Translations under genes and position numbers: made by a program
The notes under the pieces: generated by a model
What the model saw: the letters and a program-made list of their open reading frames with translations, nothing else
Databases searched by the model: none
What the model was told of the DNA's origin: nothing
Shown here: one piece after another, positions 1,739 to 37,444 of the stretch
Position numbering within the stretch: position 1 is the first letter of the stretch
Layout of the letters: every line of letters starts with the position of its first letter
DNA from: Candidatus Freyarchaeum deiterrae
GTDB lineage: Archaea; Asgardarchaeota; Jordiarchaeia; Jordiarchaeales; Jordiarchaeaceae
Direction: 5' to 3'
Length of the DNA stretch: 64,000 nucleotides
Assembly (NCBI GenBank): GCA_037305845.1
Contig: CP147778.1
Span: 2,976,001 to 3,040,000 of the forward strand

Positions 1739-3250
1739 CTAAATGCTAGAGTTGATTCCGTAAACTATCATAGTGGGAAGTCCGGTCCTATAATCAGGAA
1801 TCACTAATTCTTTATAGTAGAGAGGGTTGGACTCTAAATCTGATAGAATCGGTATTGGTACGTAATCATAGAGGCTTATGAAAACCGCGCGCACGTAACC
1901 ACTTTTCGCCCAGCCATCCATCCATTCCGGGAAATTTGGGGTAAACACGCAAAGTCTATCGGTGTAGATTCTAACCATCGGGTACACGTTGGTGATTATT
2001 AGCTGCCACGGCGGCGTTGTGTATTTTAGATAATCATAAACTGGTATAGGATTGTATACTTCCGAGTTAGTGCGAACAAAATATACTCCCATAAATCCTA
2101 CAGAAATGTTGATGATCACTAATAAAATGGCGAGTTTCTTGCTTTTCATGAAAATGTTTTTCGAACGCGATTTAATAGCTTGACTTCTTTCTTTGTACTC
2201 ATCCGTAAGGAGCATGGTTAAACCCAAACCGGTGAGAACGCTGAAGGCGGGAAGTGAGCTTTGATTATACCTGAACAGGTCTACAAGCCTCGAGTTACTC
2301 ATTAGAATAAAGTAAAGCAACATGGATGAGAGTATCCAGAATATCAGGGTTTTATCCGCAACGCTCTTTTTACTTTTTAATGTGAAGTAAAAGTATGGGA
2401 ACAGTAAACTAGGAGTGAAAATAGGGAGCACCGCATATAACGCTGATTCCGAATAGAACGAAACAAAGTCTAACAGCGTTGGCGGGACGAACGGGTTAGT
2501 ATATATTGTTCTGATATAAGTTTGTGTTGAGGCGAAAAAGAGTTTCAACATTCCTAACCAATCTCCGGTGACAATTTCGCTGTAAAACAACCAGGGAAAT
2601 AGTGTTAGGAAGGCACAGATTATTCCCAAATAAAACCATGGAGACTTGAAGGTTTTTTTGGCATTCTTGGAAAAAAATATGTAAAACAAACCCACGAACA
2701 GGACGCTGCCCCCTGGGTACCTGGACAGAAAACTTAGGGTGAGGAAAATTCCTGCTGGCACATAGTATTTAGGATTTTTCTGAGCTCTAACTATAAACAG
2801 AAGGAACAATGCTGAAATCAAAATGAAAGGTACTTCGCTAAGGATACCCCAACAAATAACGATAAATGTGACGCCGCAGCTCAGCGCCAATGCGGAAAAT
2901 TTGCCCACCGTAGAACTATACATTTCTTTTCCCAAAAGATAAACCGCATAGACCCCTCCAATTGAAATTAGAAAAGAAACTTCTTGTGCAACTATTACGC
3001 TAGGCGTTGTAATCAGGTAAGCTAAATAAATGCTGAAATACAATACAGGGACTCTTGAAAAGTCTAGCAAAACTTGGAAAGGCTGCCAACAGTAAAAGCC
3101 GAAATAATAAAAATCGCTTGCCATATTAGAATATACCGCCTCATCCCATGATAGAGAAATGGGAAAGGCTGAAAGTACTCCTCTGATTCCGTTAACAACT
3201 ATGATAATAATAATTGCCCAGTCTATTTTTGAGCGCAGCGTTCCAAGCAT
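1739..3250 (-). CDS. GT-C fold glycosyltransferase (GT39/ArnT/PMT-like), polytopic membrane protein
   Basis: WDEAVY after the first TM helix, many hydrophobic helices, SE and RY motifs. Confidence 0.85.
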   Translation of the reverse strand: MLGTLRSKIDWAIIIIIVVNGIRGVLSAFPISLSWDEAVYSNMASDFYYFGFYCWQPFQVLLDFSRVPVLYFSIYLAYLITTPSVIVAQEVSFLISIGGVYAVYLLGKEMYSSTVGKFSALALSCGVTFIVICWGILSEVPFILISALFLLFIVRAQKNPKYYVPAGIFLTLSFLSRYPGGSVLFVGLFYIFFSKNAKKTFKSPWFYLGIICAFLTLFPWLFYSEIVTGDWLGMLKLFFASTQTYIRTIYTNPFVPPTLLDFVSFYSESALYAVLPIFTPSLLFPYFYFTLKSKKSVADKTLIFWILSSMLLYFILMSNSRLVDLFRYNQSSLPAFSVLTGLGLTMLLTDEYKERSQAIKSRSKNIFMKSKKLAILLVIINISVGFMGVYFVRTNSEVYNPIPVYDYLKYTTPPWQLIITNVYPMVRIYTDRLCVFTPNFPEWMDGWAKSGYVRAVFISLYDYVPIPILSDLESNPLYYKELVIPDYRTGLPTMIVYGINSSI

Positions 3251-33706: not shown

Positions 33707-36700
33707 ATGAAATCTATCGGGAGGAGAAGGCGAGCAGTAAAACTAGTAATTTTAGCTGCTATGCTTCTAATTGCAGCAACCCTAGCAGGTGTTTCAATCC
33801 AAAATCAAAATCAAAACACAAATCCAATTATCAACCAAAACCTATTTTTGTACATGAATACTCCTGCAAATCATCCCATATTTACAAAAGACAATCCGAC
33901 TATCAACTATCCTACGAATAATATTGTGCTTGCTTCTGGAAGCTTCAATGTCACCTGGACCAACACTAGAACAGACATAGACTACTACCTAGTTAGTAAC
34001 GACAGTTACAGTCCGGACAGTGTGGTTAATACGACCACTAGCTATCAAGTCAGCCTATCTGATGGTCTTCACACTGTGAATGTTACAGCCGTCTACCAAG
34101 ACGGTAACTCTAGTTCTAGCATTGTTTCCTTCACTGTGGACACCACTCCCCCCACTGTGACTATCACCTCACCCAGCAATGGTACTCTGTTTAACACCAG
34201 CAGTGTTATGGTGAACTGGACTGGTAGCGACGCCAACTCGGGCATAGCCTACTTTGAGGTCAGAATTGACGAAGGCAGCTGGACCAATGTATCTGCGAGC
34301 CCCAGCTACACTTTCACCAGTGTCACAAACGGTACTCACACCGTTGATGTCGTAGCCTTCGATTTAGCGGGTAACAATGCCACCGCTTCTGTTTCCTTTA
34401 ACGTGGACACCATTCCTCCCACGGTGACTATCACTTCACCCACCATGGGCGTGCTGCTTAACACCAGCAGTGTTACTGTGAACTGGACCGGCAGCGACGA
34501 TACGGGTATAAGCTACTACGAGGTCAGAAATGACTCCAGCTCTTGGATCAACATGGGGACGAGTACCAGCTACACATTCACCAGTTTGTCCGACGGTTCT
34601 CACACTGTTTATGTTATGGCTTTTGACTTGGCTGGTAACAACGCCACCACGTCTGTTTCCTTCACTGTGGACACCACTCCGCCTACAGTAACCATAACCT
34701 CACCCAGCAATAATGCTATGCTTAACACCAGTAGTGTTACGGTGAACTGGACGGGTAGCGACGCCACCTCGGGCATAAGCTACTTTGAGGTCAGAATTGA
34801 CGGCGGTACTTGGCTCAATGCATCTGCGAGTCTCAGTCACACTTTCACCGGTGTCTCAAACGGTTCTCACACCGTGTATGTTATGGCTTTTGACTTGGCT
34901 GGTAATAACGTCACTGCTTCTGTTCCCTTCAACGTGGACACCACTCCACCCACGGTGGCTATCACCTCACCCTCCTTGGGAGCTGTACTTCTCACCAATG
35001 TTGTGTTTAACTGGACCGGTAGCGACGACACCGGCATAGCCTACTTTGAGGTCAGAATTGACGGCGGTACTTGGCTCAATGTATCCACGAGCCTCAGCTA
35101 CACTTTCACCGGTGTCTTGAACGGTTCTCATACTGTTTATGTTATGGCTTTTGACTTGGCTGGTAATAACATCACTGCTTCTGTTCCCTTTAACGTGGAC
35201 ACCATTCCTCCCACTGTGACTATCACCTCACCCACCAATGGTACCCTGTTTAACACCGGCAGTGTTACAGAAAACTGGACGGGCAGCGACAACACCGGCA
35301 TAGCCTACTTTGAGGTCAGAAATGACGGCGGTAGCTGGATCAATGTATCTAAGAGTCTCAGCTACGCGTTTACCGGTCTCTCGAACGGTTCTCACTCCGT
35401 GGATGTCATAGCCTTCGACCTGGCTGGTAACAACGCCACCGCCTCTGTTCCCTTCACTGTGGACACCACTTTGCCTACAGTGACTATCACTTCACCCACC
35501 AATGGTGCGCTGTTTAATACTAGCAGTGTTACAGTAAACTGGACTGGTTACGCCTACTCAGGCATAAACTACTACGAGGTTAAGCTTGACGGCGGTACTT
35601 TTGGCAGTGTTGGAACAAATACCAGCTACACGTTCACCAGTCTTTCAGATGGGTCTCACACCGTTTATGTTAGGGCTTGGAGCCTGGTGGGTAACAATGC
35701 CACTGCATCTGTTTCATTTAACGTGGACACCATTCCTCCCACAGTGAATATTGCCTCACCCACCAATGGTGCGCTGTTTAATACTGGCAGTGTTACAGTG
35801 AACTGGACGGGCAGCGACGCCAACTCGGGCATAGCCTACTTTGAGGTCAGAATTGATGGCGGTAGCTGGATCAATGTATCCACGAGCCTCAGCCACACTT
35901 TCACCGGTCTCTCAACCGGTACTCACTCCGTGGATGTCATAGCCTTCGACCTGGCGGGTAACAATGCCACCGCTTCTGTTTTCTTCACTGTGGACACCAT
36001 TCCTCCCATAGTGACTATCACTTCACCCACCAATGGTACGCTGTTTAATACTAGCAGTGTTACAGTAAACTGGATAGGTAGCGACGGCAACGGCACTGGT
36101 ATAGCCTACTTTGAGGTCAGAATTGACGGCGGTATCTGGATCAATGTAGCTAAGGGTATGAGCTACCCGTTCACCGGTCTCTTAACCGGTTCTCACCCCG
36201 TGGATGTCATAGCCTTCGACCTGGCTGGTAACAACGCCACCGCCTCTGTTTCCTTCAACGTGGACACCACTCCACCCACGGTGACCATAACCACTCCGTA
36301 TAACGATACCTCGATTAATGTGGGGACTATCATAATTAGGGGTGTATATAACGGTACTGGTAGCAATATTCAGAAGATTGATTGTAACGACTCCCGTTTT
36401 ACTCTTCAGACCGCTCCTCCGTTTGGCGTTACTGGAACTTTTGTTTTTATTAATAAAACTAACCCTATTTATAGCGGTAGTTTTGGGTTGAGAGTTACTG
36501 TTTTGGATGATGCGGGTTTTACTACGTTTGTAGATAGGTGCGTAATAGTAAACCAGAGTGGAATTATCGGCTCTAATATTTCGGATTTGGGTATAGGTAA
36601 TAATTATATCGATGCTGTTTCCGTTGCAGGCGTGGAGCTTTGGTTGAATGTTAATGCTCCCGTAAGGGTTTACATTACTTGCACCGCCGCAAATCTGGGT

Positions 36701-37444
36701 GGTAGTGCTCCGACCGGATTCGGACTTCTCGGAAGGTTTTGGTCTATTTCGGTGAACGACACCTCTGCTATTCAAAGTGTAACTATTGGGGCAATATACT
36801 CGGATGAGAACGTTACAAAAGCTGGAATTGTAGCAGTCTCTGGACTAGGATACTGGAACGATACTAGCGGTATGTGGGAAGAAATTCCAAGTACTCTGGA
36901 TCCACCGAACAATATTGTAAAAGCGACTATCGATCATTTGTCTAGCTTCACTATCCTTGGAACTCTACCGTCTTCGGGAACTCCAACTTCGCCTTATCTT
37001 CCATTATTGTTACTGTCCCAGTCTTTAACAAGTGGGGTTAATCCTCTAGCTTATTTAGTTCTGGCTTTGGTTATGGTTTTACTTGTTTCTGTCGTAGTGG
37101 TAGCATTTAAAGGAAGTTTAAGGGGAAAAGCTGTTGAGCCAAAGGCTCCATTAACTCTCGTGAGGTCTGATGCTTCCAAGAAGGCAGGATGTTTCTACTG
37201 CGGCTCTGAGATTCCTGAAGACGCTGAGATCTGTCCTTACTGTGGCGAGATTAGAGCGAGGTGCTCGGTGTGTAATAGATACCTCATTGTGGGAGACCCG
37301 TTTGCTGAGTGCCCCTACTGCGGTGCCCTTAGTCACAAAGAACACCTACTACAATGGATTGGTTCGAAAGGATACTGTCCAAAATGCAAGGAGAAATTGT
37401 TTACAAGCCACATAAAACTAAAAGACTACTTTGAGCCTCGATAA
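33707..37444 (+). CDS. Single-pass surface protein: ~10 Ig-like repeats, ZU5/GPS-like juxtamembrane domain, TM, cytoplasmic zinc ribbon and RING-like finger
   Basis: Signal peptide; DT(T/I)PPTVTITSP ~89-aa repeats with many N-x-S/T sequons; ATIDHLSSFTIL; TM LAYLVLALVMVLLVSVVVVAF; CFYC..CPYC; CSVC..CPYC..H..H..W..CPKC. Confidence 0.88.
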   Translation: MKSIGRRRRAVKLVILAAMLLIAATLAGVSIQNQNQNTNPIINQNLFLYMNTPANHPIFTKDNPTINYPTNNIVLASGSFNVTWTNTRTDIDYYLVSNDSYSPDSVVNTTTSYQVSLSDGLHTVNVTAVYQDGNSSSSIVSFTVDTTPPTVTITSPSNGTLFNTSSVMVNWTGSDANSGIAYFEVRIDEGSWTNVSASPSYTFTSVTNGTHTVDVVAFDLAGNNATASVSFNVDTIPPTVTITSPTMGVLLNTSSVTVNWTGSDDTGISYYEVRNDSSSWINMGTSTSYTFTSLSDGSHTVYVMAFDLAGNNATTSVSFTVDTTPPTVTITSPSNNAMLNTSSVTVNWTGSDATSGISYFEVRIDGGTWLNASASLSHTFTGVSNGSHTVYVMAFDLAGNNVTASVPFNVDTTPPTVAITSPSLGAVLLTNVVFNWTGSDDTGIAYFEVRIDGGTWLNVSTSLSYTFTGVLNGSHTVYVMAFDLAGNNITASVPFNVDTIPPTVTITSPTNGTLFNTGSVTENWTGSDNTGIAYFEVRNDGGSWINVSKSLSYAFTGLSNGSHSVDVIAFDLAGNNATASVPFTVDTTLPTVTITSPTNGALFNTSSVTVNWTGYAYSGINYYEVKLDGGTFGSVGTNTSYTFTSLSDGSHTVYVRAWSLVGNNATASVSFNVDTIPPTVNIASPTNGALFNTGSVTVNWTGSDANSGIAYFEVRIDGGSWINVSTSLSHTFTGLSTGTHSVDVIAFDLAGNNATASVFFTVDTIPPIVTITSPTNGTLFNTSSVTVNWIGSDGNGTGIAYFEVRIDGGIWINVAKGMSYPFTGLLTGSHPVDVIAFDLAGNNATASVSFNVDTTPPTVTITTPYNDTSINVGTIIIRGVYNGTGSNIQKIDCNDSRFTLQTAPPFGVTGTFVFINKTNPIYSGSFGLRVTVLDDAGFTTFVDRCVIVNQSGIIGSNISDLGIGNNYIDAVSVAGVELWLNVNAPVRVYITCTAANLGGSAPTGFGLLGRFWSISVNDTSAIQSVTIGAIYSDENVTKAGIVAVSGLGYWNDTSGMWEEIPSTLDPPNNIVKATIDHLSSFTILGTLPSSGTPTSPYLPLLLLSQSLTSGVNPLAYLVLALVMVLLVSVVVVAFKGSLRGKAVEPKAPLTLVRSDASKKAGCFYCGSEIPEDAEICPYCGEIRARCSVCNRYLIVGDPFAECPYCGALSHKEHLLQWIGSKGYCPKCKEKLFTSHIKLKDYFEPR

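Follow-up and report, generated by a model that had tools for sequence, protein, structure and literature searches.

The window analysed here, a 64,000-nucleotide stretch of contig CP147778.1 of Candidatus Freyarchaeum deiterrae (positions 2,976,001 to 3,040,000), contains a gene for a surface protein in which one transmembrane (TM) helix joins a MAIN-type domain to a zinc ribbon and a RING-like finger in the cytoplasm. The host belongs to the Freyarchaeia/Jordarchaeia lineage of Asgard archaea, and its genome is closed at 3.58 Mb. As read from the sequences, this fusion, found in paralogous Asgard proteins, is what is new here; the MAIN-type domain as such is of a kind already known, having been predicted in 2012 (Zhang et al. 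2012, PMC3482391), with self-cleavage demonstrated in a preprint of 2026 (Brogan & Rudner, bioRxiv 10.64898/2026.05.12.724683). By sequence and predicted fold, residues 950–1086 are an archaeal member of the MAIN family, the prokaryotic homologues of the GAIN_B/GPS subdomain of adhesion GPCRs, within the wider ZU5 superfamily. By analogy with its relatives, the window protein probably cleaves itself at a juxtamembrane His-Leu-Ser (HLS) motif.

The protein comprises, in order, a basic and hydrophobic leader (a signal or anchor peptide), an immunoglobulin (Ig) array, the MAIN-like domain, the TM helix, and the tail with its zinc ribbon and RING-like finger. Its features are as follows, with the basis of each assignment in brackets; the alignment A3 is described below.

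33707..37444, + strand: gene of the putative receptor, a 1245-residue type I surface protein (open reading frame and translation, Pfam, sequons and hydropathy)
33884..36283, + strand: Ig array, sequon-rich, about nine Big_7-type repeats, about residues 60–859 (Pfam, NCBIfam)
36284..36553, + strand: further beta-rich Ig-like module, residues 860–949, directly before the MAIN-like domain (sequence; module repeated in the relative P0002)
36554..36964, + strand: MAIN-type domain of predicted GAIN_B/ZU5 fold, residues 950–1086, about 135 residues (AlphaFold2, Foldseek, VIA-align, homologues, profile matches)
36854..36877, + strand: GPS-like tryptophan pair W1050...W1057 in YWNDTSGMW (alignment A3; W1057 nearly invariant in the family)
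36935..36943, + strand: predicted autoproteolysis triad His1077-Leu1078-Ser1079, with the predicted scissile bond Leu1078-Ser1079 (conservation, model position, alignments)
36941..36961, + strand: last beta-strand, SSFTILG, residues 1079–1085 (DSSP of the model; aligned to ADGRF1 TSFSILM)
36962..37039, + strand: stalk, residues 1086–1111, S/T/P-rich (TLPSSGTPTSP), then YLPLLLL...SG(V/L)NPL toward the membrane (sequence; conserved in paralogues)
37040..37105, + strand: single TM helix, about residues 1112–1133, then basic KGSLRGK (hydropathy maximum at residues 1113–1118 in 19-residue windows)
37190..37243, + strand: cytoplasmic C4 zinc ribbon, C1162, C1165, C1176 and C1179 (Pfam DZR / Zn_Ribbon_1; invariant Cys columns)
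37262..37387, + strand: RING-like cross-brace finger, C1186-x2-C-x12-C-x2-C-x4-H1210-x2-H1213-x10-C-x2-C1227, with W1217 (ligand columns, AlphaFold2, Foldseek, Pfam)

Pfam matched the Ig array to Big_7 (E 3.7e-62, nine stretches), Big_13 and Glucodextran_B, and NCBIfam matched it to an OmpL47-type domain. Hydropathy gives one peak only, at residues 1113–1133, beyond which lies the soluble Cys/His-rich tail. All 49 N-x-S/T sequons of the protein lie N-terminal of the TM helix and none C-terminal of it, which fits an external ectodomain and a type I glycoprotein. The HLS motif is situated about 33 residues outside the membrane. A sequence-only reading of this DNA had described a domain ending in YWNDTSGMWEEI...IVKATIDHLSSFTILG, lying between the Ig array and an S/T/P-rich stalk and with a His at 36935. 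This peptide is present as written in the window translation, codon 36935–36937 is that of His1077 (with Leu1078 at 36938–36940 and Ser1079 at 36941–36943), and the domain indeed has nine Big_7 repeats before it and TLPSSGTPTSP after it. An antisense open reading frame at 36182–36775 (− strand, 197 residues) lies wholly within the gene; it found no support and is treated as spurious.

An AlphaFold2 model of residues 945–1093, made from a 50-row alignment, is all-beta (predicted local distance difference test, pLDDT, 92.7; predicted template modelling score, pTM, 0.85). H1077-L1078-S1079, residues 133–135 of the model, occupy the turn between the last two strands, 126–131 and 136–142. By Foldseek against the PDB, the best match is the GAIN domain of BAI3 (4dlo, E 2.8e-5), with a probability of 1.00 to GAIN domains, and further matches are ankyrin ZU5, the GAIN domains of CD97 (9mqr, TMq 0.62) and BAI2, and the FIIND of NLRP1. 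VIA-align scores CD97 at Z 10.8 (128 residues, 3.2 Å) and BAI3 at Z 9.6; among ZU5 and FIIND domains, the ZU5 structures 3f59_D and 4d8o each reach Z 9.9, NLRP1 (7crw) Z 8.6 and CARD8 Z 8.3. For CD97 the alignment runs as far as residue 144 of the model and residue 540 of the chain; with the CD97 cut at L530|S531, model L134|S135 would fall on it. The model gives residues 950–1086 the GAIN_B/ZU5 beta-sandwich fold, so that the comparison with ZU5 and GAIN domains suggested by the sequence-only reading comes out in favour of that reading (Z 9.9 for ankyrin ZU5, Z 10.8 for CD97).

The motif is retained well beyond the window. An exhaustive phmmer search with residues 945–1093 found 146 representative proteins at E ≤ 1e-3, from which 178 copies of the domain were recovered. 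Across these copies, His is kept in 164/178 (92%), Ser or Thr in 173/178 (97%), and Phe, Trp or Tyr at the +3 column in 177/178. The nearest homologues come from metagenome-assembled genomes labelled Lokiarchaeia or Freyarchaeota. Close relatives all retain the motif, as DHLTGFAILG, NHLTDFAIFG and, in three paralogues from the same genome, DHLTNFALMG, NHLTYFAILG and DHLSNFAIIG. On the conservation of His and Ser, to which the earlier reading had tied its proposal, orthologues and paralogues agree: His and Ser/Thr are kept in both. A pattern search of genome contigs, with back-translated, subfamily-specific patterns, returned 3 loci only, and a profile search of the genomes was used instead.

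To relate the domain to known families, we used a profile of the domain only, A3, which holds 44 sequences (43 Asgard and one Bacillales). Its best three matches among all PDB sequences are receptors of the adhesion G-protein-coupled class (aGPCRs): two constructs of ADGRF1 (E 0.006 and 0.009) and ADGRB2 (E 0.043), followed by two weak elongation factor P rows at E about 0.2. ADGRF1 and ADGRB2 align with A3 in register on the GPS cleavage site, W..W...H-L-T/S-x-F, with SSFTILG opposite TSFSILM of ADGRF1. The likeness to GPS/ZU5 sites seen in the bare letters is thereby upheld, as the family profile places HLS onto HL|T of both receptors. A narrow profile of four paralogues, A1, had no significant match among PDB sequences (best E 1.5, unrelated), so that only the broader 44-sequence profile reaches the aGPCRs. 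Pfam GPS (PF01825) is matched by 3 of the 44 A3 members (best E 6.9e-4) and is the sole family matched by more than one of them; in ten whole homologues scanned with Pfam, the MAIN-like domain is covered by no model. An archaeal PGF-pre-PGF domain with an archaeosortase signal was also considered as an identity and found no support, Pfam and NCBIfam giving no match at E ≤ 1.

The same profile extends into bacteria. Of 251 Bacilli genomes searched with A3, 60 contain the domain, mostly as DHFTKFAV followed by SLH repeats. It matches a YfkN equivalog at THFSEYTVL with E 8.4e-5, and hhalign, with HLS aligned on HFS, gives E 4.4e-5. The identity of this equivalog comes from NCBIfam NF006937 (YfkN-type trifunctional nucleotidase; 2712 bits, above cut-off), and it carries an LPxTATN sorting signal. 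A search for A3 homologues among longer proteins returned mainly Asgard hypothetical proteins and no named YfkN.

Prokaryotic GAIN_B homologues have been named MAIN (Microbial Autoproteolysis INducing) domains (Brogan & Rudner, bioRxiv 10.64898/2026.05.12.724683). The ZU5, GPS and Nup98 autopeptidase domains had been united before, and large surface proteins of bacteria predicted to undergo ZU5-type processing (Zhang et al. 2012, PMC3482391). Bacillus subtilis YfkN is cut at HF|S; an S-to-A change abolishes the cut and S-to-T restores it, the fragments stay associated, and sodium dodecyl sulphate or heat frees the ectodomain from cells (10.64898/2026.05.12.724683). In bacterial MAIN domains the self-cut falls at H-X-|S; nearly all MAIN domains tested were cleaved, and cleavage occurs in E. 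coli without a partner (10.64898/2026.05.12.724683). The sequence-only reading had noted that HFS-type motifs occur in many prokaryotic surface proteins and might be purely structural; their wide occurrence stands, and the second part does not, since these motifs belong to the same self-cleaving family.

For the window protein, we propose that His1077 most likely would serve as general base for Ser1079, which would attack the Leu1078 carbonyl in an N-to-O acyl shift followed by ester hydrolysis. The chain would be cut at Leu1078|Ser1079 soon after folding, with SSFTILGTLPSSG as the new N-terminus. The glycosylated Ig ectodomain of about 1050 residues would then be held solely by the beta-sheet hydrogen bonds of the SSFTILG strand, which would stay joined to the stalk, the TM helix and the zinc ribbon-RING tail. 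Were the bound ectodomain pulled, or the protein exposed to denaturing stress, the ectodomain would come away and about 33 residues would remain outside the cell as a stub. These steps are not equally secure: the cut itself is likely, release of the ectodomain by force stands at roughly even chances, and a consequence for the RING tail is doubtful.

Several points weigh against self-cleavage. Some GAIN domains with an intact HL|T/S are uncleaved, and in ankyrin and UNC5 the ZU5 domain has a structural role only; fold and motif together are thus not proof of cleavage. The links to characterised families are weak (E 0.006 for the aGPCRs, about 1e-4 for YfkN), and between residues 882 and 1115 the window's domain matches no Pfam or NCBIfam family at E ≤ 1, GPS and ZU5 included. 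The four GPS cysteines, which form two disulfides in GAIN/GPS domains, are absent, there being no Cys between residues 993 and 1161. The helical GAIN_A is absent as well: just 90 beta-rich Ig-like residues follow the last Big_7 repeat, as judged from the sequence, and this module (residues 860–949), standing directly before the domain, leaves no room for GAIN_A. The domain could have the GAIN_B/ZU5 fold and remain uncut, a rigid juxtamembrane spacer in which H-L-S-x-F is kept for the turn and the buried last strand. Non-cleaving ZU5 is about equal to GAIN in the fold search (Z 9.9 vs 10.8), His-less copies of the family exist and presumably fold, and the window's domain has no match to a family model from which catalysis would follow. 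We nevertheless judge such a spacer unlikely. Folding alone would not keep a solvent-exposed His at 92% and a turn Ser/Thr at 97%, and this catalytic-type conservation argues for function. His is also lost preferentially in internal copies, where release would be senseless: of the 84 copies with a TM helix no more than 90 residues downstream, 80 retain H-x-S/T, against 71 of the 90 internal copies, counts that include related sequences and thus make the contrast an indication, not an independent statistical test. Among the His-less variants ([SDG]-[LF]-S), 17/26 are internal, many of them inside giant Ig-rich proteins. In addition, the MAIN domains tested in the preprint were nearly all cleaved (10.64898/2026.05.12.724683).

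The remaining explanations fare worse than the spacer. If the motif were cut in trans by a surface protease or a sortase-like enzyme, for example of the archaeosortase type, its position about 33 residues outside the membrane would suit, as sorting enzymes act there and in archaeal surface proteins processing close to the C-terminal anchor is common. We regard this as very improbable, however: the motif sits within a predicted folded beta-sandwich and not in a linker, the NCBIfam scan gave no match to PGF-CTERM or another sorting-signal model, and the long cytoplasmic tail of functional type is unlike that of sortase substrates. Homologues, moreover, cleave in E. coli without a partner (10.64898/2026.05.12.724683). 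The idea that the GPS/ZU5 likeness is a chance pentapeptide in an unrelated beta domain draws on the shortness of H-L-S-x-F and on the missing Pfam match; it is refuted by the conservation of the motif across 146 representative homologues, by a GAIN/ZU5 fold predicted with high confidence and by an independent profile match that falls in register on the aGPCR GPS.

Two groups of Asgard proteins carry the domain in other settings. In giant Ig-rich proteins of other Asgard genomes (L025–L031, L035), internal copies with the His replaced ([S/D/G]-[L/F]-S) are followed by Ig-like domains, with no anchor; these His-less copies are probably non-cleaving structural versions. Small Asgard membrane proteins (L013, L016–L020, L023, L024, L032) have two to three tandem H-F-S-type copies, a TM helix and a tail that is short and basic; should all the tandem copies cleave, such a protein would be a chain of non-covalently linked pieces.

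On the cytoplasmic side, the Cys/His-rich tail (residues 1156–1245) matches Pfam DZR (E 1.8e-4) and zf-RING_2 (E 0.013), both sub-threshold. The finger ligands C-x2-C-x12-C-x2-C-x4-H-x2-H-x10-C-x2-C are invariant or near-invariant in 29 relatives, and a canonical RING-H2, C-G-H-x-F-H, occurs in L084 and in L097, the latter outside the 29-row alignment. An AlphaFold2 model of the tail (pLDDT 88) is matched by Foldseek with a probability of 1.00 to the RINGs of LNX1/2, Rad18, Ring1B, RNF24 and TRAF6 and to the ZnF-RINGs of IFT-A and GATOR2. In fold, the tail is closest to the C-terminal ZnF-RING modules of the 'protocoatomer' subunits of IFT-A and GATOR2/SEA, and classical E3 RINGs come after them.

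The tail family (37172–37441 in the window) was found in 223 of the 301 Asgard genomes searched, with at least 17 copies in the window's genome, and is almost always C-terminal in membrane proteins. Four proteins of the same genome share the entire block of MAIN-like domain, stalk YLP-LLLL...SG(L/V)NPL, TM helix, linker, C4 zinc ribbon and RING-like finger. The ectodomains before this block are the Ig array of the window gene, right-handed beta-helix repeats (L002, L003) and a DUF2341-type ectodomain (L004, assigned via homologues). In a set of 179 domain-bearing proteins, the tail is a zinc ribbon plus RING in 15 and a lone zinc ribbon in 7; H-L-S/T is kept by each of these 22, and anchor-only copies have mostly H-F-S. 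In an orthologous beta-helix-MAIN gene of Ca. Jordarchaeum madagascariense (DXJA01000525.1, L006), a frameshift falls within the MAIN-like domain at about 3130–3200, and L005 has a TGA that cuts the RING tail short; both may be assembly errors or pseudogenes.

E2 (UQ_con) and ubiquitin-like genes are present in the host genome. Two clusters that lie outside the window combine both kinds (G000:C1 1,909,982–1,910,749 and 1,985,127–1,987,285), with E2 genes at 1,910,348–1,910,749 and 1,986,166–1,986,543, and they are the likely partners of the many RING-tailed membrane proteins. At the outer edge of the TM helix, at 37028–37045 (residues 1108–1113), lies the motif S-G-(L/V)-N-P-L, which reads S-G-V-N-P-L in the window gene and is conserved in this gene, the paralogues L002–L005 and P0002/P0003. 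A comparable Asn-Pro helix-breaker occurs in the SREBP substrates of site-2 protease. Pfam identifies four Peptidase_M50 genes in the host; with Pfam models, neither Rhomboid (PF01694) nor SPP/presenilin (PF06550) was found in the complete host genome, and a Notch-like second cut therefore stays speculative.

We speculate that the MAIN-TM-zinc ribbon-RING proteins could be true transmembrane receptors, in which stripping of the ectodomain by force or ligand would change the state of the RING, and the RING would direct the archaeon's own E2/ubiquitin system. This is a tentative reading, one that we think more apt to fail than to hold. The stub might act on the RING by clustering, by unmasking, or through intramembrane release by a site-2-type protease at the S-G-(L/V)-N-P-L helix-breaker.

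The autoproteolysis of GAIN domains underlies mechanosensing by animal aGPCRs and polycystins. MAIN has so far been described as a release device without a signalling partner, and the fusion in the window bears on a possible signalling role of the anchored fragment, with which, according to the preprint, no signalling mechanism is associated (10.64898/2026.05.12.724683). The module recurs with no fewer than three types of ectodomain (Ig array, beta-helix and DUF2341) and is a candidate for coupling ectodomain shedding to ubiquitin-type signalling inside the cell, in the archaea most closely related to eukaryotes. Were the receptor reading true, a prokaryotic GAIN-like domain would for the first time have a signalling output tied to it, and the proteins would be an Asgard case of the logic 'adhesion ectodomain, autoproteolytic switch, intracellular effector' that operates in aGPCRs, polycystins and Notch. 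If there is no cleavage, or no coupling to the tail, the protein is merely one more archaeal MAIN adhesin.

In its proposed logic, the window protein resembles SEA/SEAL and Notch-type shedding receptors (MUC1, RsgI anti-sigma factors, Notch): next to the membrane, a module that cuts itself or can be cut would hold the ectodomain non-covalently, release would expose a short stub of a single-pass protein, and the cytoplasmic part would carry the output. The folds are unrelated, SEA being alpha/beta, and a site-2 or intramembrane step in the window protein is conjectural. The ZU5/FIIND proteins (PIDD, NLRP1, CARD8; ankyrin, UNC5) have the same fold, and self-cleavage of the H-F-S type occurs in PIDD and NLRP1. 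Those domains, however, lie in the cytoplasm and have UPA, CARD or death domains as partners, whereas the window domain is extracellular, predicted to be glycosylated and without a UPA, CARD or death domain; its sequence is closer to GPS, and it has no Pfam ZU5 match.

The GAIN/GPS domains of aGPCRs and polycystin-1 (CD97 9mqr, BAI3 4dlo, ADGRF1 7wu3) provide the best structural matches, at Z 9.6–10.8. Like the aGPCR domains, that of the window has W..W...H-L-S/T-x-F-x-I-L in register, SSFTILG being the counterpart of TSFSILM, the start of the ADGRF1 tethered agonist, and stands immediately before the membrane behind a variable adhesion ectodomain. It differs from aGPCRs and polycystins in having one TM helix instead of 7 or 11, which makes an aGPCR-like tethered-agonist mechanism unlikely, and in a proposed output domain that is a RING-like finger and not a G-protein coupler.

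The closest comparison is with the MAIN proteins themselves. These occur in archaea as well as bacteria and have a sortase signal, a cell-wall-binding domain or an SLH domain as anchor; the S. agalactiae IgA-Fc receptor is among the examples (10.64898/2026.05.12.724683). The preprint's main text mentions neither Asgard nor RING, and its Pfam co-occurrence table lists a handful of zinc-ribbon entries among 15,000 proteins (10.64898/2026.05.12.724683). As in MAIN, the window domain is a GAIN_B-only beta-sandwich with H-X-S/T in the last turn, before the last strand. The MAIN order of signal peptide, large adhesion or enzymatic ectodomain, MAIN and anchor is likewise repeated in the leader, nine Ig repeats, domain and TM helix of the window protein. 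Unlike the MAIN proteins of Bacillota, with their H-F-S, the window protein has H-L-S/T, the aGPCR form, and its host is an Asgard archaeon; and unlike the MAIN anchors, its own is a TM helix that continues into a cytoplasmic tail of about 110 residues with a zinc ribbon and a RING-like finger.

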